64,000 bases of DNA, taken from assembly GCA_964016885.1 (NCBI GenBank), contig OZ024743.1, positions 102,548,001 to 102,612,000 on the forward strand, given 5' to 3'. Below are positions 1 to 61,402 of this stretch, one piece after another (position 1 is the stretch's first letter; each line of letters begins with the position of its first letter). Both the position numbers and the translations under genes were made by a program. The notes beneath the pieces are model-generated. The model worked only from the letters and a program-made list of their open reading frames with translations. It had not been told where the DNA came from and made no database searches. The DNA is from Eledone cirrhosa. Lineage: Eukaryota.

Positions 1-544
1 CTATCGTCAGCAACGTATATCTTCCTGCCAGATAGTTGAACGTCCGAAAGTATATACTTTCCTTATGCATATTAACGGGTGAGTAGCCCAATTTGCATAT
101 CGAGTGGGTTAATCGGCCGGGTGCACCGAAAACGATAAACGGAAAAAATGAAACGAAATTTCATTTCCCACTCTTAGTACGGCTGTTACTTAAATATAAG
201 TATGTATACGTACATACGTACATACATATATGTATACAGACGTACAGTAGTATGTATATATACATACATGCACACATATATATATATATATGTACGTATG
301 GAATCACCAAACATTTATTATAATACTCGGTGTGTTTGTAAACAAACATCCCGTATTAAGCCGTACAGTGTCTAGCAACCACCGTTGCTCGTTTGTTCAA
401 CACTGACAAAGGAACGCTGTACTAGTTTCAAGCTTGTTAGCTATCGTCAGCAACGTATACCTTCCTGTCAGATAGTTGAACGTCCGAAAGTATATACATT
501 CTTTATGCATATTAACGGCTGAGTAGCCAATTTGCATATCGAGA
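1..544 (-). repeat. ~440-bp tandem unit (retrozyme-like family B), 1.2 units visible
   Basis: 1-104 recurs at 441-544 (period 440). Homologous to 28637-29240, 55996-56632 and 57670-57945. Confidence 0.85.
414..456 (-). ncRNA. Minimal type I hammerhead ribozyme (family B)
   Basis: Minus strand acgttg-CTGACGA-tagc taacaa gctt-GAAA-ctag-TA-cagcgt. 6-bp helix I and palindromic helix III (ctag). Confidence 0.85.
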
Positions 545-12516: not shown

Positions 12517-15500
12517 TCATCTTTCAACAAAATGCTGGGAAGGGAGCACTTCCCTCTCTACTCTGATTTTCCTTTTCAAATGAAATTTGAAAAAGTCAAT
12601 CAGGGCATCACCGAAGAGGTAAGTGCTCGTCTTCAGCCCTTTCAAACGTGTCCACCATACTATCTCTTTCGCCATGGCCACCAGACAGATAAAAACTGCC
12701 TGCCCTTCTCGGCTAAAGGAAGAGGGCGGGGAAATCCTCACGATGGACTCAGATGATAGCCGGATCCGTCCTACACGCGACAGCAGGTGTTCGACATAAA
12801 CCCACAAGTCAGCAATGCTCGGACACTGGACGAGTGCGTGCAGGACGGTTTCGTCGCCCTGCGCGCATCTCGGACATGCCCGGCTGACGGCACCTCCATG
12901 CCTGTAGAGTTTATGCCGAACTGGCTAGGCTCCTCGGTAGCACTGCCAGGCCAGAGATTTCTGGAAGTTGTCCATAGGTCCCGTCCCGAAAGTTCTTCCG
13001 AAGAGATTGGCTAGTTGATTTTCGTCGACGCCTAGAGTTTCCCCAAGTACGTCGTCGCTCTTCCCCTCCACTAATCCTCTATAGAACGCCGAGGTGGAGT
13101 TTCCACCGATCACATTGCCCGATTGGTCGAGGGCTGTGAGCGCCTGAAGACATTCCAGTCTCCAGGCACTCCCTCTCGGTCTTCGCTTGACCCAGGACTG
13201 CAGCTCCGTCAAGAAAACGAGCTGGGGAAATACGTGTCTAGCAAACGGCGACCACACCTTATCACCGTCGAGGAAGAGGTGGAGATGTCGTAGCCTGAGC
13301 GCGTGTCTGCGCATCATCAGCCACGGCATTCCCAGCCCACCACGTAGCGGGTGTTGACAGCAGATGGACCGCTTGACCATCGGAGCGCGTCCCTTCCACA
13401 AAAAGCGAAAGAGCAAACGCTCCAGCGCAGTCAGGCAGGGCTTAGGACAAGGTACGACGGTCAGGCAGTAGCAGATGACAGACGCGATGTCCACGTTAGC
13501 CACCTCCGCTCGACCTTTCACGGATAGCTTCCTCTCCGCCCATATCTGGGTGAGAGAAGCCACCCTGCTCGTCACCTCGTCCCAGTTTTTGTCCGTCTGG
13601 AGGTCCGGACCGAACCAGACCCCTAGCAATTTAACCGGTCCGTCCGTCCAGTGTCCGACGACGCTGTGGGACGGCATGGACCTGCCTCTCCAGGTGCCGA
13701 GCTGCAGGCCCACCGACTTTTCTTGCTTGATCATTGCTCCTGTCACTGCTTCGTATTCTCTTAGTGTAGTGCCGATCGCCTTGATGTGTTTGGCGTTCGA
13801 CACCACTACGGTGACATCCTCCGCATATGCTGACACGGATCTTCCGCATCCTAGTTCGCGCGGGACGCTCCTCAACGTCTCCAGTTTGTGCAGTAATGGC
13901 TCGAGAGTCAATACGTACAAGGGGGACGAGAGGGGACATCCTTGGCGGACCGTGCGCATGATGTTGAACGGTTCCGAAAGGTGACCGTTCACTCTCACCA
14001 CAGAGCAGATGTCGCTGTGCATGGCAGCGATCCAGCCTCTGAAGACGGGCCCAAAGCCAGCCGCCCTCAGGACTGCCGCTAGGTAACGATGGTCGACCCT
14101 ATCGAAAGTTTTCGACTGATCTAAATTGATCAAGGAGCCACCCGTGCCAGGTTCCCTAGCTACCCTCTCTACGATGTATCGCATGATGTGGAGGTTGTCG
14201 TGGATGGATCTGTCGGGAATGGCGCATGTCTGCGCCTCTCCCACTCCACCAGACCACCAACGACAAGCGCCAACCTCTTTGCTAGCACATTGGCCAAAAT
14301 CTTGAACTCTGTGTTTAGCAGGGTTATGGGCCTGAAATTATCTATGTTATACCCCTTGTTCGGATCCTTTCTCAGCAGTGCCATCGCTCCTCGGCTCACA
14401 GAACTGGGAATACTCCTGTTCTGTTGCCAGTTGCAGTAGACGTCCGCCAAGAGTCCTCCGAACAAGTCTGGCATCTGTACGTAAAGTTTATAGGGCAGAC
14501 CATCCAAACCAGGCGATTTACCCCTTGTGCAGCCAGTCATTGCCTCCCTTACTTCAGCGGCTGTTATCGGCTTTTCGCAACACTCCGCCTCAGTGGCCGA
14601 GAGCCGCGGCAGTCCGACGAGGTAGACACTAAAGTCCATTCTTCGTCCCGGCCCACCACTGCCCCCGAACAGCTGAGCGAAGTGTCGCTGAAAAGCTTCA
14701 CACATTTTCCCGGGATCGAGTAGCATGCGCCCATCGTGGTCCACCAAAGACCGGATCGTGGCTTTGTTGCCACGACGCGCCTCCGCCACTCGGGCCCATT
14801 GAACGGCTTTCGTCCCCTCGTGTCTGAGAGCACGCACCCGAGCTCTGACAACGCAGCCTTCGTGCTTTGCATTGAAGAATTGGTCAAGGGCCAATTTCGC
14901 CGCAAGCACGTCGGTCGCAATGCCTTTGCTAAGCGCCTCGTCTAATTTTCTAACTAGTTCTCCCTCTGCTCTATTTTTCTCTATTGCTAAAGCCTTACTA
15001 AACCTAATGGATTCTATTCTAATCGCTCTTTTCAGAGCAAACCACCACTTGTTGTTGACGATGGCCTATCTAAGTGAAGCACACAGATCACGAATTTGTG
15101 GTCCGTGTAGCTGACTATCTTGAATTGTGGACAGCGTATGCTAGACCTATCTATTTCCCTACAAAATACTCTATCTAGATATGATCTAGATGACCCTATG
15201 CGATTTGTCCAGGTCCACATTGGCACATTCGGGAAATCCAATCGGTACCTGTCAGACAGTTCAAAACGCCTGAGCAGGTTGGTGAGGCTCTTGCACTTAC
15301 CACCCTTATCCGCTAATCCCACACAGTCCCAGCGTGCATCTAAGATCCAGTTCCAGTCACCCACTAACACTAAAGAGCGGAACGTTCCAAGAAAGGTCTC
15401 CAGACACTGGAAGAAATCAGGCCACCCGGCTCCTGTCGGAGCATAGACGGCCACTAGCCTGAAAGCTTGCCCGTCTCCGCTGGTCACGTCAAGCACCACC

Positions 15501-15600
15501 AACTTACCGTCTGGGTCGAGGAAGATGGCCCGTATGGCGAGATCCAAACCTCTCCGAAAAAGCACAGCAACTCATCCCCCCGATCCAGGACGGCTGGGAG
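12517..15600 (-). pseudogene. Tx1 ORF2 (APE endonuclease + reverse transcriptase), disrupted
   Basis: VYAP, GDWN, SYLDR, TDH (APE). KSPGLDGLP, FRPITLLN, LDQSKTFDRV, VRQGCPLS, AYAED (RT). Spread over four reading frames. Confidence 0.9.
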
Positions 15601-16856
15601 ATGCGTACACATCGTAGCCGCCGAAGATCGGTGCGAAGGCCCGTGCTTCGGAGATTCTGGTCTCGTATGGGTGCCACGGACCTATCGTTCTTGGTTGCCG
15701 CTTGTCCTGTTGCTGATAGCCGTGGAGCCGGTTTCGGAAGGAAGGGGGTTTTCTCCTTTCTCATGGTCTTCTCGTTGCAGAAGGCCCTGAGGTGAGTCTT
15801 CGATCCACAGCGAAAGCATTTCGGGCGTTTGCCCTCAACACTTATGGGCAGTTGAGTGCCGTTATCGAAATCTATCACATCCGGGATAGCTTCGATGCAC
15901 TCCTGGTTGGTTTGGATTAACATCCCAATGGAGGTTCCGAACCAATCTTCTCTTACTTTTTCTGTACTTGCAGTAAAGTTGTTTTGTCCTCGATTCCGAC
16001 GAGGACAGACGCGGCCAGCCAAGAAGGGGCCATCCCGGGGGGGGACGTGCGTCAGTTTGACCCTCACAATTGTTTGCCCGCAGTAGGAGGGCACCAACAC
16101 CATTTCCTCGATTCTTAGGGTCACTAAGGATTGAGCCTTTGCCTCCTGGGGTGTGGCAAAAAGCTCGTCTATGGTGGCATATTTTTTGCCTCGGGTGATG
16201 TGCGTTTCCCGCTGCCAGGCTTTTTGTATTTGAGCCTCTGTGGCTCTTTCAACCCTACGGGATTTTGTGCTTAATGTACGGTACGTGACCGTACAGTGCT
16301 GTTGGGTTTCGAAAAATGTTTCGGCTGCCTTGCAGATTGCTCGGTGTCCGGTTTTCGTCACCATCTTCTTCGCTTCCTCTAATTCATCATTTGTTATGAG
16401 GATGGTTTCCAGGTTCTTTGCGATACCTGCAAACGAGATTGGTTTTTCTTTGCTGCTGTTGATGTTGTTGTTGTTGTCGTCAGAGCTGCTGTTACTTTTG
16501 TTGTTGCTGCAGATACTACGACTACTGCCGCCGCCGCTGTTGCTGTGGTTGTTGTTGTTGTTGCTGCTGCTGCTGCTGTTGTTGTTGCTGTTGCTGCTAA
16601 TGTTGTTGTTGTTTGTGCTGCTGCTGGTGATGCTGCGGATGCTACTGTTATTTTCCTTGTCACTGTTGCTGCTGCTGCTGTTATTACGGCTGCTACTGCT
16701 ATTATTCCTGACGTTAGACGAATGAAATGGGTTTTCGTATTTCCCGCACACCTTTTTCGTCGTTGTCGTCGTCGTCGTGGAGAAATCTTGCACGCTTTGC
16801 ACGTGATTTTTCTTTTCTGGCGTCGCTTGCGAAAGAGAAGGCAGGGAGAGAGACAC
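15504..16856 (-). CDS. Tx1 ORF1 gag-like protein (boundaries blurred by frameshifts)
   Basis: PISVEGKRPKCFRCGSKTHLRAFC (CX2CX4HX4C). Poly-Ser/Asn low-complexity N-terminal tract. Confidence 0.75.
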   Translation of the reverse strand: MSLSLPSLSQATPEKKNHVQSVQDFSTTTTTTTKKVCGKYENPFHSSNVRNNSSSSRNNSSSSNSDKENNSSIRSITSSSTNNNNISSNSNNNSSSSSNNNNNHSNSGGGSSRSICSNNKSNSSSDDNNNNINSSKEKPISFAGIAKNLETILITNDELEEAKKMVTKTGHRAICKAAETFFETQQHCTVTYRTLSTKSRRVERATEAQIQKAWQRETHITRGKKYATIDELFATPQEAKAQSLVTLRIEEMVLVPSYCGQTIVRVKLTHVPPRDGPFLAGRVCPRRNRGQNNFTASTEKVREDWFGTSIGMLIQTNQECIEAIPDVIDFDNGTQLPISVEGKRPKCFRCGSKTHLRAFCNEKTMRKEKTPFLPKPAPRLSATGQAATKNDRSVAPIRDQNLRSTGLRTDLRRLRCVRISQPSWIGGMSCCAFSERFGSRHTGHLPRPRR

Positions 16857-17183
16857 ATTTAGAGAAGGGAGAGAGAGAGACTATCTTCTCTCTGCTGTAG
16901 TGACGATTGAGGAAGAAGAATACGGAATGATTGGGAGTGACCTATGAAAATTCTTTTTCGTAGCCATCTTGTTTTTTTTGTTTAAAATAAATATTGGGCA
17001 CAAAACCCCAATAAGCGGTTATTTAACCCCGAAGGGCCAAATAACGGGCAGAAAGACCCCTCTCACGAGGAGGAGGGTGTTTTTGTCTACAAGTTGGTTT
17101 AAGTTTTGAACAATTTACAATTGTTATAGCGGTCAAAATTTACAATACCTGACAGAGCCGAGCCTCCGTCAACCATAGCATTC

Positions 17184-17223
<40 letters not shown>

Positions 17224-18932
17224 GTTGAGCAAAATTATGAAGTCCTGTGAAACAGAGTTAAGATCGGGTGGAAAATCCTTGGGAGGCGTGAAGATCAAGA
17301 GAGGTACCTTCGAGGGAGATAGTTTGTCCCCTCTGCTGTTTGTCCTTGCCCTGATACCACTGACCATTATATTGCGAAAAGTGAGAGCAGGATACAAGTT
17401 GGGAAAAGGAGAGCTTATCATCAACCACCTCCTCTTCATGGATGATCTTAAACTCTTTGGGAAGAAATGAGAAGGATTTGGATGTACTTGTTGACACTGT
17501 CCATATTTTCAGCAATGATATATGTATGGAATTTGGTATTAATAAATGTGGAGTCCTAGTGATGAAGAGGGGTAAATCGAGCAGAAGCAACGGAATCCAG
17601 GTACCAACAGGTGAGATGATAAAGGAAATTGACACCAAAGAAGGATACAAATATTTAGGTGTTCTGGGGGCTGATGACATCAAGAACAAAAGAATGAAGC
17701 AATTGATAAGATCTGAGTACATTAGGAGTGTAAGAAGCGTATTAAGATCACATCTAAATAGTAGGAATCTCATAAGTGCAGTAAATTCCCGAGCTGTGTC
17801 TATTATTAGGTACACTGCGGGAATTCTGAAATGGGATGTTGCTGAACAAAAAGAAATGGATAGGAAGAGTAGGAAGCTATTGACTATCTACAACATGTTC
17901 CACAAGAGAAGTCATGTCGATAGATTCTACTTAAAGAGATCTGAAGGTGGAAGAGGTATTATCAGATGGGGAACAACAACCTACACAAATACGTGACTGA
18001 CAGTAGGGAGCCAGTGCTCAGAATTGTACTGAAGGAGAGGACAATAGACCAGGGGATGTCCAAGGAGGAAATAACAACAAGGAGGAAGAGCAATCTTCAT
18101 GAAAAATCCCTTCGTAGTACCTCCTTTGAGAAAACTGAATTTAGAGATCCACAGACATGGAACTAGTTGAAAAGAGGAGACCTTAAAAAGGCTACAGAAT
18201 GAATGCTAATGGCTGCGCAAGAGCAGGCCCTCGAAACGAAGTGGCTGAAACACCATATTTACAAAGAGGAGGCTAGTCCACTGTGTAGGATCTGTGGAGA
18301 GAGAGAGGAGACTGTGGCTCACATTGTATCCGAGTGTAAAGACCTAGCCCAGACTCACTATAAAGGCTGGAGACATGATGTAATGGGCAGGGTGATCCAC
18401 TGGCACTTATGCAAAGTAAACTATTTACCACATTCTGAGAAGTGGTATGAGCATAAGGCAGAGTCGGTGATAGAAAACGATCTGGTGAAGGTGCTGTGGG
18501 ATTTTAGGATACAGACGGACAAGAAACTGGAACACAATAGACCTGATCTGGTGGTTTTGGACAAGGAAAAAAGATCGTGCCTGATTGTAGATGTAGCCTG
18601 CCCATTCGACACGAGAGTGCAAGAGAAGGGGAGGGAGAACATTAACCGATACCAGGACTTAAATTAGGAGGTAAAACGGATTGGAACTGCCATGAAGTCA
18701 AAGTGGTTCCGATTATCATAGGCGCACTACGAACTATCTCAAAGAGTTTCCAAGGATGGTTAAAGAAAATTAGTCCAGCCCCGCTTTTTGGAACACTTCA
18801 AAAGGCATGCTTGCTGGTAACAGCAAAAACCCTCCGATACGTCCTGAATATCTGAGACTGCAGGTAGTGGCTTGATATTCATTTCAACAAACTTTCCAGT
18901 TAAATAACATCAATGACTGAGACTAAAAGAAC
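17224..18932 (+). mobile_element. 5'-truncated R4/Dong-like LINE (RT + CCHC + restriction-like endonuclease), disrupted
   Basis: GDSLSPLLF, HLLFMDDLKL, YKYLG, CRICGEREETVAHIVSEC, RHD, RPDLVVLD..IVDVACP. (AAT)n on both sides. Confidence 0.9.
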
Positions 18933-21816: not shown

Positions 21817-21877
21817 TATTTTATCTGATGAGCGCGTACCAAAATGTTGGTACTCTTGAAATGTATATAATAAAATA
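21817..21877 (+). ncRNA. Type I hammerhead ribozyme (family A) inside a Penelope pLTR fragment (~21765-22010)
   Basis: tattttat-CTGATGA-gcgc gtaccaa aatg ttggtac tctt-GAAA-tgtata-TA-ataaaata. 8-bp helix I. A 3'-half-only copy is at ~22272-22345. Confidence 0.8.
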
Positions 21878-22354
21878 AATATGGTTTTATAAATATAGTT
21901 TCTATTTATTAATATCATTGATATTATACACCAGAAAACTGTAGAGTGCTTCGAATCTGTTATAAATAAATTTGTTGAATAACCAACAAATTAAATATCT
22001 CTTTGGTTATATATATATATAAACAAATAGTAGAAAGGAAAAATATTTTTTTAGTAGAAAATGTTGAAGAGATTTTTTTCAGTGAAATATCAAAATATTA
22101 ATTTATTTACAATACCGGTTTCAGCAGCATTATATGCACTATCAGAAAAACCACCCTTCGGGTGGTTTTCTGCTAGCATGTGTAGTGTATATATTGGTAT
22201 TAGCCTCGCCATCACCCAAAAGTAACACTGCCAGTGTGTTGGGTTCTCTCAAAAATCATTGTTTATGAACATTTTGGTACCCTTGAAATATATATAATAA
22301 AATAAATATGGTTTTATAAATATATTTTCCATTTATTAATATCATATATATATA

Positions 22355-27200
<4,846 letters not shown>

Positions 27201-28636
27201 TCTCCCACACCACAATGTTCGACTGATCACGTTGACTGACTATGCATGTATGTATGTATGTACGTGATTTTGGATGGCCATTGACTCTTAAGAGTTCCTT
27301 TGCTCTTTGACAGGTTTTGTTTTTAGTCCTGCAGGATGTCCAAAGTCACCCTCCTCACCAAGAAACCTTGGTGGGGTTGCCAGTTTAGTCGCCAACGACC
27401 CGACCATGAGACAGGTTGTACTGGGATACAGCTTACCAGTAGCACCAGCCGGTGACTTGAGAGATGACCCCTCAGCCTTTGTCAATGCAGAAATCTAAGA
27501 GAAGGAAAACTCTGATATAACACCTGCAACCCTGATGGTATCCAATGATGTTGACTTGTTCTTCTTTTTGGTAAATAGCATTTTGGTTAAAAGAGTGGGC
27601 CTGGCTTTGTGCAGTGCCTTTGCTCACTATAAAAGCTTCACGGCACAGGCATTGCTTTATATCTTGAGATCTCTCTGCACTTGTCGTCACATGGTACCAT
27701 GGGCCCAGCACTATGTGTCAATAATTGTCACAAGTGTAGTGTTTGTACCAGAGTTTTCAAGTCGCTGGCTGGAGTAAAAAGTCACACTCGTTGAGCGCAT
27801 CGGTAAGGGTTCTCCTACATGGATATAAAGTAGTGGCCGTACTCGAAAACGAGTTGGCAGCCACCATGTATGTACGTATGTATGTATGTATGTATGTATG
27901 TATGTATGTATGTATGTATGTATGTATGTATGTTTATGCGTGTGTGTATGCATGTTCGTGCGTACGCTTATTGCAAAGAATATGTCATTATTGGAGGTAC
28001 AGAGGTCGATAAAATAAAGTACCAGTAATGTACTGGTAATTGCTGTCCTTGTGCCAAAAGTAGAAACAATTATTGGAGGTACAGAATTTTAAAAATAAAA
28101 GTAGAGATGCGTTTATTGAACATACTACGACATTTTGCATTATCCCAGTGATAAAAGATATAAAACCTATGAACAACGCTTCTGTTAACATAGAACGCAT
28201 TGCCGAATATATAACTATTCCCTTTTGAATTCATGTAATCAATTTTTTATCATGGATGTTATAAACGCTTCTGGATTAATGTGTCAGCATCTGCGTGAAC
28301 TTTGAATATATATATAGAGAAAGAATCAATATTTCAGGAAGCACTACATGGATACCTTGAAGTCGTATAGTTTCCATTTCATCTCCGTCGGATGAGTGTC
28401 AAATCGAATTTCATTCAATATCCCTGATTTAAATCATAACCAGAGAAGTACTTTCAACTTATATATTTCGTTCTCTGCTCGTTTTCGGTGGGTTTTAACA
28501 AAATATTGTTGTTGTTATTGTTGAAAATGGACGCAGCGTCACAGAATTGTTAAGAGGTTTGCTTATCAATCCCACTCTCTAGCATCTTGGGTAAGTGCCA
28601 TTTATCCTAGACTTGGTTCGAATCAGGCCTTGTGAT

Positions 28637-29232
28637 ACGTACATACACATATGTATACAGACGTACAGTAGTATGTATATATATACATACATGCACACAT
28701 ATATATATGTACGTATGGATTTACCGAACATTTATTACAGTACAGTAATATGTATATATATACATACTACTGTACGTCTGTATACATATGTGTATGTACG
28801 TATACATACTTATATTTAAGTAACAGCTGTACTAAGAGTGAGAAATGAAATTTCGTTTCATTTTTTTCGTTTATCGTTTTCGGTACACCCGGCCGACTAT
28901 ATGCAAATTAGGCTGCTCAGTCGTTAATATGCATAAGGAAAGTATATACTTTCAGACGGTCAATCATCTGGCAGGAAGGTATAGGGTGCTGACGATAGCT
29001 AATAAGCTTGAAACTAGTACATCGTTCCTTTGTCAGTGTTGAACAAAAGGGCAACGATTTCTGCTAAACACTGTACGGCTTAATTCGGGATGTTTGCTTA
29101 CAAACACACCGAGCATTATAATAAATGTTCAATAAATCCATACGTACATATATACATATATGTGTGCATGTATGTATATATATATATATACTACTGTACG
29201 TCTGTATACATATATGTATGTACGTATACATA

Positions 29233-29240
<8 letters not shown>
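28637..29240 (+). repeat. Family B ~440-bp unit with an inverted leading segment (28637-28740)
   Basis: Reverse complement of 1-544. Contains the HHR at 28983-29025. Confidence 0.85.
28983..29025 (+). ncRNA. Type I hammerhead ribozyme (family B)
   Basis: agggtg-CTGACGA-tagc taataa gctt-GAAA-ctag-TA-catcgt. Confidence 0.8.
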
Positions 29241-29287
<47 letters not shown>

Positions 29288-36330: not shown

Positions 36331-36565
36331 TATATGATAATTATCCATTTCTTCGGTTATTGTTATCACGTTATATTAATTAATTTCTTTGGTTATTGTT
36401 ATCACGTGATATTAATTTATTTCTCGGCTTATTGTTATCATACGATATCCATTTCTTTCTCTTCTTATGAAATATTCCTCCGCTTATTGTTATCGTAGAT
36501 TATTCATCTATTTCTTTGTTACTTCATTTTTTCTGGTTGTAATTTATTTTATTATATTTTTTCAG

Positions 36566-37607
36566 ATCAATTCTAAAAGCTTCCGGTGCCAGCCCATTTC
36601 TTGGACCATTATTTTTTGACAGTGATGGCCATATACAGATATCGAATTTTATAATCAAAAACCTAATACACGATGGAGAAAAAGTGACATGGAGAGAGAT
36701 AGGCTATATTCGCAATGGTGATGTCAGGATTCGTGAGCCAATATGGCCCATTGACCATATACTCCCAACATCTGTTAATGGACGAACGCGTTATCGGATT
36801 GTTACGAACCCAGTCAAACCTTTTGTAATGGAAGAGGCTCCACATAAGGATTACAACGAATGTATGTCAGATACACCTTGCTTGAAACTTTCTTCTAAGG
36901 ATAAAGAACGGACTATAGCAGCTCTTCGAGATTTCGAAGCCGGTGTATTAAACCAGAGTAACCCTTGGGAAATACGGTGCTGTCGTGGATTATCAATCGA
37001 CTTGTTAAATAAGTTGTCTATTGATTTAGATTTCGAGTTTACATTATTTCTCGTTTTTGATAAATCCTATGGAGCCTACAGTAACGGTTCGTGGAATGGT
37101 ATGATTGAAGATCTCCTCGAGAGCACAGCACACATTGCCATGGCAGCCTTTAGTATCACCAAGTCACGTGTCAAAGCTATTGATTTTACGGATCCCTATT
37201 TTTTCTCAGGGTTTTCTATCCTAGTTGCTGATCGCGTTAGGGATCCACACATGCAAGCATTTTTGGAACCTTTTTCCATAGGTGTATGGTTTGCGATTTT
37301 TATCAGCGCCACAGTCACTGCCGTTGCTATGGCCTTGTTTGAGTGGAACAGTCCTTTTGGACTAAATCCATGGGGACGAAAACGAAAGTCTAACTATACA
37401 ATGGCTTCCGGGCTAAACATGGTATATTCTGTATTATTTGGTCACACAGTTAGCACCAAATCCCCGAAAGCATGGCCAAGTAAAGTCATGCAAAATTTCT
37501 GGGCTTTTGCTGCAATATTTATAATAGCAAGCTACACTGCCAATCTTGCTGCCTTCATAGCCGGGAAAAACAATGGTGTTGGATACAATGGAATCTATGA
37601 CAGCAGA
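36566..37607 (+). CDS. GRIN3A: NMDA receptor GluN3-like subunit, 1042-bp exon encoding ATD-S1 linker, S1, M1, M2 and M3
   Basis: Acceptor ttttttcag|A and donor AGA|gtaagt. Motifs CCRGLSIDLL, WNGMIEDL, FSITKSR, IDFTDPYF, FLEPFS, EWNSPFGLNP, LFGHTV, SYTANLAAF. EWxSPFGL and Gly at the pore N-site are GluN3 hallmarks. Confidence 0.92.
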
Positions 37608-38429
37608 GTAAGTTATTTTCCTCTTATTTGAATAACAAATATTGAAAACAATGTCTATGCTGAAATATTCTCTTGAAAGTATTTTAAATGTATTTTAATT
37701 TTGTTCACAAAAGCAAAATGAATGTCAATCTGAGTCAATTGTGATGTTACTCAAAAGAATAGGTACAATTACTCCTAAAGCTATATTAGAAGGATTTCAA
37801 AGACATATATGATTTCAAAGACATATATAATTTATTGCATTTGCATATATATTTTTAAACTGTTTTAATTATCATTAATTTGCTTTGTAACATTGACCAT
37901 TTAACAAAGTTTATATAATCTCGCATGATTTACTTACTCTAAGTTAGTTTCTATACTTCGTAAAGAATTATTTCAGGACAATATTCTCTTCATTTTTACT
38001 GATGATTATCATTAGCTATATAATGAAGGCATCAACATAGATATCTGTAAGAAACATGCGGTCTATTATTAGTGAATGGAAAGAAGAAAATCTTTAATTT
38101 ATTCTTGACAATATAATTTAAGAAAATAACTTTGTATATTCATTTATAACGAATAAGTTTGTTATTGGAAAACGAAAGGTTTCCTTGCATTAACTCAATG
38201 TTTGTGACTGGATTTCATCATTCTAAATCAATTCTCACGATTGTTTGTAGTATCCTTAAAGTTCTATTTTGGAAGAATGTCGTTATATATTGTTGGGGTT
38301 GTTATTGTCAATGTTTAGGGCAAGATCACACCCCACTGAACATAACAATGGTCAATCAAATACCCATCGTAACATGTCTTTTATTCCGGCAGTGCATCTA
38401 AGACGACATTATTAAATGTAACTCTTGAA

Positions 38430-55995: not shown

Positions 55996-56632
55996 TAAAC
56001 GAGCATTATAATAAATGTTCGGTAAACCGATACGTGCATATATATATGTGTGCATGTATGTATATATATACATACTACTGTACGTATGTATACATATATG
56101 TATGTACGTATACATACATACATACTTACATTTAAGTAACTGCCGTACTATGAGTGAGAAATGAAATTTCGTTTCATTCTATTCCATTTATCGTTTTCGG
56201 TGCGCCCGGCCGACTAAATTCACTCGATATGCACATTAGGCTGCTCAGCCGTTAATATGCATAAGGAAAGTATATACTTTCAGACGTTCAACCATATGGC
56301 AGGAAGGTATACGATGCTGACGATAGCTAATAAGCTTGAAACTAGTACATCGTTCCTGTGTCAGTGTTGAACAAAAGGTTGACGTGGTAGCATAAACACT
56401 GTACGGCGTAATTCAGGCTGTTGTTTGTTTACAAACAAACCGAGCATTATAATAAATGTTCGGTAAACCGATACGTGCATATATATATATGTGTGCATGT
56501 ATGTATATATATACATACTACTGTACGTCTGTATACATATATGTATGTACGTATACACACATACATACTTACATTTAAGTAACTGCCGTACTAAGAGCGA
56601 GAAATGAAATTTCGTTTCATTCTATTCCATTT
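55996..56632 (+). repeat. Family B tandem, ~1.45 units (period ~441)
   Basis: 55997-56190 recurs at 56437-56632. HHR at 56311-56353. Confidence 0.88.
56311..56353 (+). ncRNA. Type I hammerhead ribozyme (family B), best-paired copy
   Basis: acgatg-CTGACGA-tagc taataa gctt-GAAA-ctag-TA-catcgt. Perfect 6-bp helix I. Confidence 0.88.
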
Positions 56633-56639
56633 ATATATA

Positions 56640-56681
<42 letters not shown>

Positions 56682-57190
56682 AATCTATACTGATTAATTT
56701 TGATATAATATATAAGTATAATTAGCTAAAGCATAATCAAATACAAGAGATATTCAATTGTTTATGTGAATTGAGTTGATGTCTTATTTGATGTAGCATT
56801 TGAAAACAACGGTTTTTTTATCCCCCTCTATTCGATGTTCCCTTATTTTTCTTTATTTTTCTTTACCCCCCCCCCTGTTCCCTTTTACTTTCCCCAACGC
56901 TTCCCTCTCTTCTGTCGTTATTCCTCTTTTCTTTTTTTATATATTTCTTTTAATTATCATGCATTTACTTGTTTATTCCTTTACCTATTCATGTATTTAT
57001 TTATTTATTTATTTATTGCCTTTCCTCTTCTTTATACCCCCTCTTATATCTCTAATTTGCTCTACGTCCTTTTCTTCTTTAAGTTTATCATATTATTTGT
57101 GGTATAAAAACGTTGAGATTTGATGAAATAAATCACTGCCAATACTGGAATTGACAAGACCGTAGCGGTATGTCATATATCAAATCATAT

Positions 57191-57252
57191 ATTGTGTCTG
57201 ATGAGGTGGTACTGAAAAAACAACACAGTACCTTTGAAATATATATAATAAA

Positions 57253-57329: not shown

Positions 57330-57628
57330 ATAATATAAGATTAAAAGATGGTTAAAAGAGTTCCAAGTATTTTATTATGCGCATTTCAAAAACAAATATC
57401 ATCATGGGATGATATCTGCGTTCTCTACAGATAAAATAGGGATATATGATATGAAGCTTAAAAAACACTTGTGAATAGTGAAGTTTTAAATCAACATATG
57501 TTGAGAACGCAGATATCATCCCATGATCTTATATTATTTATACTTCAGTCCTACAAACTGTAGAGTGCTACTTATCCGATATTTGCATTGCTTTATTGTG
57601 CTACAATAAAACTCACCTCCTGTCTACT

Positions 57629-57669
<41 letters not shown>

Positions 57670-57673
<4 letters not shown>

Positions 57674-57945
57674 GTAAGTATGTATGTATACGTACATACA
57701 TATATGTATACAGACGTACAGTAGCATGCATATATATATATATATATATAGGTACACATACATATATGTACGTATCAGTTTAGCGAACGTTTATTGTAAC
57801 GCCCGCTTTGTCCGTTTGTAAACAAACTGACAGCCTGAATTTATGCCGTACGGTGTTAAGGCAACCACGTCACCTTTTTGTTCAACACTGACACAGGAAC
57901 GATGTGCCGTACTAAGAGTGAGAAATGAAATTTCGTTTTCATTTT
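57670..57945 (-). repeat. Family B partial unit with 5' inversion
   Basis: 57670-57904 is in minus orientation; 57905-57945 is a plus-orientation piece of the same unit. Confidence 0.8.
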
Positions 57946-57951
57946 TTACAA

Positions 57952-58015
<64 letters not shown>

Positions 58016-58552: not shown

Positions 58553-61348
58553 ACAATATATTAATAAATGGAAACTATATTTATAAAACCATATTTACTT
58601 TATTATATATATTTCAAGGGCATCAAAGGAAAATTATGCTGCGCTTCCATCAGATAAAATACAGATTTGTTTTATAAATAAATAAATATTGACATACCCG
58701 GAGAAAAAGAACAACCTTAACCGTTGGAGCTTCCTGCATAGTGGAGATAATATTTTATTGAGGGTAATACAAAGTTATGAGTGAGTACGCAAATGAGTGT
58801 CCGAAAAGTTGAAAATATAACGGTTTATTTAAATTAAACTGTTGGAAGAAGATGATATGTAAGGGAGAGAGAAAAAAGAAGAGGAAGGAGAAAGAGAGAA
58901 GATGAAAGAAAGAACGATTATACATAGTGATAGTGAAGAAAGTCAGAGTGAATGAAGAAATGAGTTTTAATGGAAAAATATACATTGCGTAAATATATCT
59001 AAATGAAAGAAGAAGTGAAAGAAGAAATAAGATTAACGTGGAAGAATAATATTTAGAATGTAGGGTTCATTACGTTGTGATTATAATATTGATAATGATA
59101 GGTTGAAAAATTAAATAAAAATAAAAAATTAAAAATAAAAATTATAGTTTAAAATGTGCCTTAATTTTAAAGATTTAATTTAATATTAATATTAAAAATT
59201 AAAAATTAAAATTATTACGGAAGTATTTATATTATATTAAGATGTATTAGTAATAATATATTGGTTTAGATGTGTATGTTATGGATTATACATTATTTAA
59301 ATAAATATATAGTATTATACATTAGAGAAAATCTAGCATAATTTATTTTATTAAAGTAAGTTTGGCAAAATTATATTTATCAATAGTATGTCAAAACTTA
59401 AACATCCAAAAATTCTAAATTTATGAAAATTTACGAGAGTTTGCAAAGGAATAACTACTTAATTATATTATAAAAATAGTAAGGAAGTATATAGGAAGTT
59501 AGAAGTGACTTTTTAAGAACTCAAATGACTCCAAAGATACATAAAAAAAACCTTTAAAAACATTTTTTAAAAAATTTTTTATGAGAAGTCATGAATGTTA
59601 TAAAGTTAAAAAATGTTATGTTAAGAATATAATTAAAACATAAACCATATGTTAATTCATAAGAAGTTATAAATTTATCTTAAGAATATAATTAAAACAT
59701 AAACCATAGGTTATTTTATAAGAAGTCATACTTATAAAGTTATAAAGTTTTAAAAAATTTATCTTAAGAATATAGTTAAAACATAAACCATAGGTTATTC
59801 CACATATATATAAAAAACCTATATATAAAAATCAAATGTTATTCCACATATATATAAATATTTGGATACATATATTAAAAATGTTTGAAGATATAAAATA
59901 TTGGAAGATAAGAAAATAATGGTTTTTCTATATCTTTCAAAGAATTTTCTAAAACCTCCAGAAAGCTTTCCAAGGAAAATTTTCCTTTAAAGAAATTCAA
60001 GTAGTCATATAAAAAAAAAGGTTATAATCTATTGATAAGTGTAATAATATAAAATATATTTATGAGGTAGAGATAATAGAAAGTAAATTAAATATATATG
60101 AATCATGGTGGTTGGATATAGAAAACATTATGTAAAGGAGATTAACCATATATTACATTTTATATATATATCTAAAAGTTGAGTTTAAACAATGTCTACA
60201 GGAACTAAATAAATTATTTCGCAAATAAATAGAGTTCTTACTTTTTAGTATAAAGAATATTTCTTCAACGCAAAGGGAGCAATTTTTGGATAGAGCCGGG
60301 TATGAAGGAGCTTTGGAGATAATTTTCGAAGATAAAGAATAGTTAATATTCTTGGATTTTAAGTTCCATAATAAGTTGGATAGAGAAGTTGAAGATTTTT
60401 TTACCAATATTCGTAAAGGAACATATATGGTTATTGAAACGAGATTTGAAGTCTGTGGAAGTAGAGCCGACATAGTTAAAGGAATTTTCATTGGTTTTGA
60501 AATTACAATTGTATACTATATTTTTAACTAAACAGTTATTATTTAGAGGACAGTTAGATTTATTTCTACAATTACATTTATCTGAATTTATGTTATTGGG
60601 AGCCGTAACATTATATTGGATATTGCTAGAGGTATTAATGCTATTCTGGTTAGGTTTTAAGTTTCTATTATTAATTCTATTAATATTCTGCGCTAAATTC
60701 ATAGTGGTGGAATATGAGAGTTTAATACTATGTCTATTAACGATTGAGTAATATATGTGTGTCTTAGGAAAGCACTTATCTAGAGCTTTAAAAATTAATT
60801 TAGCTATTGGAGTTTTAATACTTAATGAGAAAGCGGGAGCGAACCATAATATATTTCTAGTTCTATTTCTTCTTTTGATTTTCGAGTTAGTGCAAGCTTT
60901 CTTATTATAATTCTATTTATAGTTATGGTTAATTGGCACATCCTTATTATCAATGTATTTAATTTCATTACTATAGCCTGCTCTACTTAACGCTTCGTTA
61001 TAATATTGCGCCTTATCTTCAAATATATTTGTATTCGCTGAAATTCTAGAAATATGTTGGTACACAGAATTTACAATAGTGTTTTTAACGGATCTGGAAT
61101 TAAACATAGTTTAAATTCTCATTGATTTTATGAACTGGATAATAAAGACCAGTATTAAGGTTTAAAGTTACATCTAAAAAAATTAACTATTTTATAATTA
61201 TTCTCTACTTCTACTTTAAGATTAACGGTATAAAAAATTATATAATTTCTTTTCTTTTCATATTTATTTCACAATTATTATTATTTTCAATAGGCAATAG
61301 TATAACATTTTTAAGCGTGTTGAATCCCAACAAATTAAATATAACCTC

Positions 61349-61350
<2 letters not shown>
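58553..61350 (-). mobile_element. Penelope-like element remnant (RT C-terminus, GIY-YIG endonuclease, AT-rich 3' region, pLTR)
   Basis: FLDVTLNL, RTRNILWFAPAFS, KCNCRNKSNCPLNNNCLVKNIVY..YVGSTSTDFKSRFNNH, CSLCVEE..SCRH. pLTR 58553-58730 is homologous to 21765-21920. An inverted pLTR end is at 61319-61350. Confidence 0.85.
58596..58661 (-). ncRNA. Type I hammerhead (family A) in the PLE pLTR, core mutated to CUGAUGG
   Basis: tattttat-CTGATGG-aagcg..ccctt-GAAA-tatata-TA-ataaagta. Confidence 0.65.

Positions 61351-61402
<52 letters not shown>

Follow-up and report, generated by a model that had tools for sequence, protein, structure and literature searches.

A tandem hammerhead repeat of Eledone cirrhosa, probably a non-LTR retrozyme, carries the insertion footprint of Penelope-like elements

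Introduction

Non-LTR retrozymes of animals have been described from coral, mussel and axolotl, with units of 170-400 nt (Cervera & de la Pena 2020, PMC7229834). They are recognized as tandem units of 150-450 bp (up to about 970 bp in the preprint 10.64898/2026.07.22.740005) with a low GC content and neither an ORF nor LTRs. Expression and circular RNA have been demonstrated for the retrozymes of PMC7229834, where both axolotl ribozymes reportedly cleave efficiently in dimeric form only, and Penelope enzymes acting on a circular template have already been proposed for them. Li, Clavereau & Pollet (2026, 10.64898/2026.07.22.740005) described retrozymes as non-autonomous derivatives of Penelope-like elements, based on their co-occurrence in vertebrates and on pLTR homology. 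This homology is not universal, as it was found in 24 of 57 Xenopus retrozyme families, and eight of nine Xenopus retrozyme dimers in the same preprint did not cleave. In Penelope elements themselves, the tails lie between two internal start sites of the reverse transcriptase (RT). The nicking and extension affect both strands of the target, and the enzyme is predicted to form a dimer (Frangieh et al. 2024, PMC11167929).

Here we describe a repeat from a window of the Eledone cirrhosa genome, the window being the whole stretch of 64,000 nucleotides that was analyzed. Like the retrozymes of PMC7229834, the repeat is an ORF-less tandem unit with a GC content of 36-38%, one type I hammerhead per unit and a highly paired predicted circle, and autonomous Penelope-like elements are present in the same genome. 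Unlike them, it comprises subfamilies with units of 419-516 nt, combines two weakening features in one ribozyme and is known from DNA alone; its twin fixed 3' ends, TA targeting and twin-armed inversions are not among the features given in the available text of PMC7229834. No mollusc is among the classes named in the available text of 10.64898/2026.07.22.740005, and the link of the repeat to Penelope elements consists of its insertion footprint and of chimeras rather than pLTR homology, of which none was found in a sample of 50 GIY-YIG loci. With the EN+ Penelope elements of the Neptune and Hydra clades (Craig et al. 2021, PMC8557442; PMC11167929), the repeat shares an optional tail between two RT starts, head-to-head inverted arms truncated at their 5' ends, (TA)n targets and a palindromic loop 3. 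It differs from them in having no ORF, a canonical ribozyme, arms of many units and a tail of about 56 nt instead of 30-40 nt.

The first-pass annotation of the window had proposed an undescribed family of retrozyme type. Apart from pLTR homology, which is not universal, every feature of non-LTR retrozymes that could be checked in the DNA was found; self-cleavage and circular RNA are predicted. The repeat is not a new kind of element (PMC7229834; 10.64898/2026.07.22.740005) but probably joins the known non-LTR retrozymes, with unusually clear mechanistic footprints. As to the family itself, no report of it or of twin fixed retrozyme ends was found in searches of the literature on retrozymes and hammerhead ribozymes, including that on octopus and cephalopods, and an unclassified Repbase or Dfam entry may exist. 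The main text of an octopus repeat annotation (PMC13282606) does not contain the word "ribozyme".

Results

Copies in the window

Copies of the unit were found at all four loci at which a unit of about 440 bp without ORF had been annotated (Table 1). The longest ATG-to-stop frame in two units is 68 aa. The copies had been described mostly as 1.1-1.5 tandem units starting at different phases. Copy 1 is longer, and each of copies 2 and 4 consists of two inverted arms arranged head-to-head instead of a plain tandem; the phase changes at the 5' ends alone, and the 3' ends are fixed. Beyond the left edge of the window, copy 1 continues for about 240 bp and stops at site A, the upstream one of two fixed 3' ends; of its two complete hammerheads, one is split by the window edge. 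The two arms of copy 4 share no content, and therefore neither arm is a fold-back copy of the other.

The hammerhead motif reads as annotated in copies 1 and 3. Copy 2 also carries the motif, but its helix I strand does not fit acg(t/a)tg, and with a mismatch in helix I it is likely a damaged copy. The covariation at helix I pair 3 (U-G in copy 1, A-U in copy 3), the U·U closing helix II in all three window hammerheads and the predicted cleavage site at 56347/56348 were each confirmed in the sequence.

Table 1. Positions of the repeat copies and their hammerheads in the window
Feature	Position	Strand	Description
Copy 1	1..543	-	5' part of a 784-bp insertion, 1.8 units
Copy 1 hammerhead, type I	414..456	-	predicted cleavage 420/419; U-G at the third pair of helix I
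Copy 2 short inverted arm	28635..28737	-	unit phase 98-205; TA absent at outer end
Copy 2 main arm	28753..29242	+	1.15 units; site A end joined to (TA)n
Copy 2 hammerhead	28983..29025	+	helix I strand AGGGTG, G-G mismatch
Copy 3	56000..56634	+	1.44 units, period 441 (measured); ends at site B, the fixed 3' end farther downstream, next to (TA)n
Copy 3 hammerhead, type I	56311..56353	+	core CUGACGA/GAAA; predicted cleavage after GUA at 56347
Copy 3 helix I extension	about 56295-56372	+	fold prediction
Copy 4 first arm	57670..57905	-	spans cleavage site to site A, followed by (TA)n; hammerhead absent
Copy 4 second arm	57906..57954	+	only the tail from site A to site B, joined to (TA)n; head-to-head with first arm

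A gene for an NMDA 3A-like glutamate receptor has a large exon in the window (36543-37628, + strand). Its best named relatives are bivalve and gastropod proteins (60-65%), which shows the host to be a mollusc, and the repeat copies may sit in introns of this gene. Endonuclease, RT and zf-RVT pieces of a disrupted LINE-type element were found at 12520-17887 (- strand), 18203-18664 and 24733-25080.

Ribozyme architecture and conservation

The hammerhead consists of a 6-bp helix I, which continues past an internal loop into a long extension, a core of CUGAC/UGA and GAAA, a helix II of a U·U and 3 bp with a 6-nt loop, and a helix III of a single A-U pair with a palindromic CUAG loop, which together form the palindrome ACUAGU. 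All residues of the canonical type I core are present (C3, U4, G5, A6, G8, A9, G12, A13, A14, A15.1, U16.1 and H17). In 2 of 30 loci, the third pair of helix I is instead a U·U. The ribozyme had been taken for a minimal type I hammerhead. However, minimal hammerheads of the Penelope type have a helix II of 7-8 bp, a helix I of 4-5 bp and a poorly defined loop 1 (PMC4209133), whereas the ribozyme of the repeat, with helices I and II of 6 and 4 bp, a loop 1 and a long extension of helix I, matches the canonical architecture. An Rfam search with window positions 56200-56430 returned no hammerhead family, and another Rfam search returned none among the best 150 of 265 matches.

The U·U at helix II is as in HHR_Amex2 and the 1-bp helix III with a palindromic tetraloop as in HHR_Amex1 (PMC7229834), and it is these two weakening features that occur together here. 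The predicted energy of the dimer helix III duplex is -4.8 kcal/mol, compared to +6.0 kcal/mol for the monomer hairpin. The internal loop after helix I pair 6 and the 6-nt loop 2 are both present and mostly invariant; a loop 1-loop 2 tertiary contact is putative. As a tandem type I hammerhead repeat with a looped helix I extension, the repeat resembles newt satellite 2 and Schistosoma Sm-alpha as they are described, both of which cleave as dimers (PMC6155905; PMC7229834); for the repeat, dimer cleavage is predicted.

Conservation was measured in 48 loci which were picked via a downstream anchor, independent of the core. Non-majority letters made up 5 of 528 at the 11 core positions (0.95%) and 256 of 4150 at 97 flanking positions (6.2%). 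The core is thus better conserved than the flanking positions, contrary to what had been named in advance as evidence against a ribozyme. Changes at the subfamily level hit 15 of the 97 flanking positions; within the ribozyme they are confined to N7, a single base of loop 2 and the third pair of helix I. Their absence from the 11 core positions is by itself not significant.

Outside the ribozyme, the octamer ATGCAAAT is nearly invariant at unit phase ~311-318 (e.g., window 28901-28908, + strand). Newt satellite 2 has an snRNA-type promoter that contains an octamer, and by analogy the octamer of the unit is a possible promoter element.

Abundance and fold of the unit

Of the analyses that had been proposed for the whole genome, the copy count was made genome-wide and the 5'-phase mapping and covariation test on samples of copies; they revealed an abundant family, spread 5' ends and covariation above shuffles. 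The 23-mer just 3' of the cleavage site has 29,011 exact matches in the 3.0-Gb genome, a 35-nt ribozyme pattern with the exact hammerhead core has 12,015 matches, and tandem ribozyme pairs spaced 416-446 nt occur 2,826 times, with 0 matches of the reversed pattern for each of the three counts. Of four sequencing runs compared with the repeat, one yielded no match and two a few contigs, and the fourth covered it deeply, as a shallow DNA run would. The first 100 anchors correspond to 58 loci over 20.9 Mb, and at least two tandem intact cores are present in 13 of the 58. Scaled up from this stretch, the family would comprise approximately 17,000 loci, an extrapolation that hints at a possibly abundant class of small structured RNAs. 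Arrays of 20-49 units also exist, with 16-31 substitutions between unit pairs; distances between units of one locus were used for full arrays alone, since incomplete rows inflate the others. Contig C1 has satellite-like arrays, each tens of units long and with a higher-order repeat structure, at 51.77-51.79, 53.36-53.37 and 70.05-70.08 Mb, and they represent a mobile unit becoming satellite DNA.

When folded as circles, units of three subfamilies gave z scores of -9.5 to -10.6 (40 shuffles each). Covariation was analyzed in 20 of 23 non-redundant complete units; of the other three, one was a near-duplicate and two were internally expanded over a long stretch. Across the 86 pairs outside the microsatellite, 97.8% of the cells were paired, and double changes were found at six pairs. 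The covariation score was reached by none of 500 shuffles, while the number of pairs with a double change was matched by 37 of 500; the covarying pairs stem from a few evolutionary events at the subfamily level. With the microsatellite removed, the ribozyme strand was not consistently the better folder, and the asymmetry between the strands was inconsistent.

Ends of the insertions

The ends were surveyed in 162 segments from 90 locus files and the window, the loci being the 29 best matches of copy 3 and the first ribozyme matches on contig C1; two low-complexity matches and segments shorter than 40 nt were left out. Among 160 visible 3' ends, 62 were located at unit phase 205-225 (site A), 75 at phase 262-277 (site B) and 23 elsewhere, so that two fixed sites about 56 nt apart hold 137 ends, compared to about 14 expected. 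(TA)3 follows directly after 49 of the 62 site A ends and 69 of the 75 site B ends (118 of the 137 fixed ends) and after 7 of the 23 others. The 5' ends are scattered across all unit phases, and the 63 unpaired segments have neither a fixed transcription start nor a common 5' flank. The copies had been regarded as circularly permuted. Random permutation was rejected, since the 3' ends are fixed and ordinary truncation accounts for the 5' ends.

Both ends could be assigned to site A or B in 35 of 49 head-to-head pairs, and 34 of these combined one site A end with one site B end (one of them a duplicate), with a single A+A pair and no B+B pair. A fold-back origin has been proposed for Penelope inversions (PMC3846280). 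Fold-back cannot produce window copy 4 and locus L087, because their two arms have no shared content, whereas several other head-to-head pairs, inverted at palindromes, could be fold-backs.

Penelope elements of the same genome

The genome contains 10,596 GIY-YIG candidates. The long Penelope frames belong to Neptune-type families (C-x4-C-x2-C linker), one Hydra-type family (CxC-x5-C) and one linker-less family, the clades being assigned via the linker motif of PMC8557442 and not via a tree. In the Neptune-type family A, a frame of 938 aa (locus L163) encodes RT together with a GIY-YIG domain that bears the CxxxxCxxC linker. Terminal-motif matches number 11,632 for family A and 11,204 for family D. 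Each of these two families has two 3' ends, 66 nt (A) and 39 nt (D) apart, at (TA)n, and their inversions combine one of each end in 6 of 6 classifiable pairs (A) and in 2 of 2 close pairs (D). The similarity of the end motifs of the repeat to those of families A and D was weak in a partial comparison, and the naming of a partner by this similarity was dropped. The sampled autonomous Penelope families carry ribozymes different from that of the repeat.

Chimeras were surveyed in 206 segments from 129 locus files, some of which were chosen through Penelope searches. An arm of the repeat is joined directly head-to-head to a Penelope arm at L064 (family D), at L205 and L020 (family A) and, with a Hydra-type arm, at L071, which is duplicated. 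For L205, the repeat could instead have inserted into a TA run within a family A element. Beside the ribozymes of families D and A (60 loci), one D chimera and one A chimera were found. The chimeras are few and involve three families, and they implicate the Penelope machinery rather than one family. A Penelope-like RT had been suggested before, and the twin fixed ends, the tail, the one-of-each inversions, the TA target and the chimeras support it beyond the earlier argument.

A decayed Hydra-type Penelope fragment with a CNC-x5-C linker and its 5' end at a TA run was observed in the window at 59300-61400 (- strand).

Template of the copies

When copies were anchored just 3' of the cleavage site, 2 of 100 ended there, compared to about 1.3 expected from the truncation rate (13 rows were judged by eye). 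Since there is no excess of ends at the cleavage site, self-cleaved linear monomers were rejected as the main template. At locus L263, the A arm has four ribozymes and the B arm five. The seven complete units of this locus are all 422 nt long and at most one substitution apart, with private variants common to both arms and at least four differences from the other sampled loci; L259 and L260 are homogeneous like L263 (means of 1.8 and 2.0). Judging from these sequences, a circular template is likely, and the homogeneity of L263 across both arms would be explained most simply by a monomeric circle.

ABAB and four-unit periodicities were found at L074, L277 and L153, which indicates that local duplication builds multi-unit arrays, and locally duplicated homogeneous arrays could act as linear templates. 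An origin of the L074 array from a dimeric circle was unsupported, as its 5' unit breaks the periodicity and the A and B units of L277 differ.

Discussion

We consider it probable that the ORF-less hammerhead repeat is a non-LTR retrozyme with a predicted circle of about 430 nt, which is recopied by a Penelope-like, most likely Neptune-type, RT/endonuclease. By extension from PMC7229834 and PMC4209133, the loci with at least two ribozymes (13 of 58) would be transcribed as multimers, cleaved as dimers via the ACUAGU palindrome and closed by a host ligase into the circle. The enzyme would then nick both strands of a TA run, as described in PMC11167929 and as the same signature in the co-resident elements suggests. 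The cDNA would start at two internal RNA sites, at phases ~220 and ~276, and the two arms would be joined where their 5' ends are truncated. If the template is a circle, either arm might also go round it several times, a step that we propose with less confidence. Older arrays have grown through local duplication as well. The full version of this scheme, in which a dimeric Neptune-type RT copies the ribozyme-made circle from two fixed sites, each primed by one TA strand, with up to nine turns in total, is plausible but tentative. If true, it would provide direct evidence for the hypothetical life cycle of retrozymes, with the template, starts, target and candidate enzyme named.

The same machinery could have copied an uncleaved linear multimer transcribed from homogeneous arrays, with no circle involved and with unequal crossing-over keeping the arrays long. 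We regard this as unlikely, although uncleaved RNA was the main substrate of a Penelope enzyme in vitro and the ribozyme was dispensable (PMC11167929). The arrays of 20-49 units and the higher-order repeats are in its favor, and the lack of 5' ends at the cleavage site fits it equally. However, the long arrays are heterogeneous while the young two-armed insertions are homogeneous, the unpaired segments lack the fixed start or common flank of such a transcript, and a core kept across subfamilies requires a function for cleavage.

It is improbable that the copies derive, as truncated pseudo-LTRs, from an autonomous Penelope element and are no independent non-autonomous family. Every end feature of the repeat is a pLTR feature, and the search for a pLTR homologous to the unit covered 50 of the 10,596 GIY-YIG candidates, where none was found apart from nested insertions. 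But long copies always run into another unit (up to nine per insertion and tens in arrays), none of the 129 loci has an arm running in sense into a Penelope RT/EN frame, and the ribozymes of the sampled autonomous families differ. The repeat itself lacks the ORF with RT and GIY-YIG domain that defines autonomous Penelope elements. An origin at the DNA level, as a Helentron/HINE-like rolling-circle repeat, a TA-inserting MITE or a satellite with a hammerhead look-alike, is equally improbable. The microsatellite, hairpins, tandem arrays and TA outer termini of the repeat do recall what we take to be traits of such elements, and the weak fold asymmetry between the strands would suit them; nevertheless, there is no fixed 5' terminus, the unlike 3' ends are paired one-of-each exactly as in RT-encoding families, and the full hammerhead consensus is kept, with changes confined to N7, loop 2 and the wobble pair.

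For a probable retrozyme copied by a Penelope-like enzyme, it matters that the insertions themselves bear the Penelope footprint, and hence the reintegration of a retrozyme becomes testable by a published in vitro assay. What this assay requires is defined: the RNA, both of its predicted start sites, TA as the target and, as a candidate for the enzyme, an intact frame of 938 aa from the genome that carries the repeat.

Other hammerhead-bearing elements

Several further elements were observed in the course of the analysis. The 3' regions of Neptune-type families (L163, L170, L178, L179 and L181) carry a U3-A8 core variant with a CCGG loop. The core of family D has GCAA in place of GAAA, and with 11,204 copies its spread was not stopped by this change. 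Ribozymes of family D also occur as inverted pairs with a constant spacing of 127 nt (contig C1:21363528/21363655, 25261287, 26825268, 36625819 and 40328986), which seem to be a short palindromic derivative spreading on its own.

Other hammerhead-like motifs were found in the window at 21817-21870 (+), 22255-22300 (+, partial), 57190-57250 (+) and 57345-57420 (-, degenerate), as well as at L168:33, L178:7462 and L193. Their helix II is long, their loop 3 is a palindrome, either TA-rich or TGCGCA, and they lie in short inverted elements; by their sequence they are likely minimal ribozymes of further Penelope-type families. A different repeat at L173:6020-6241 and L092:2280-2436 resembles the unit at about 69% over the latter's TA-rich stretch and its hairpin at the 3' side and also ends at (TA)n, and it is possibly a sister non-autonomous family.
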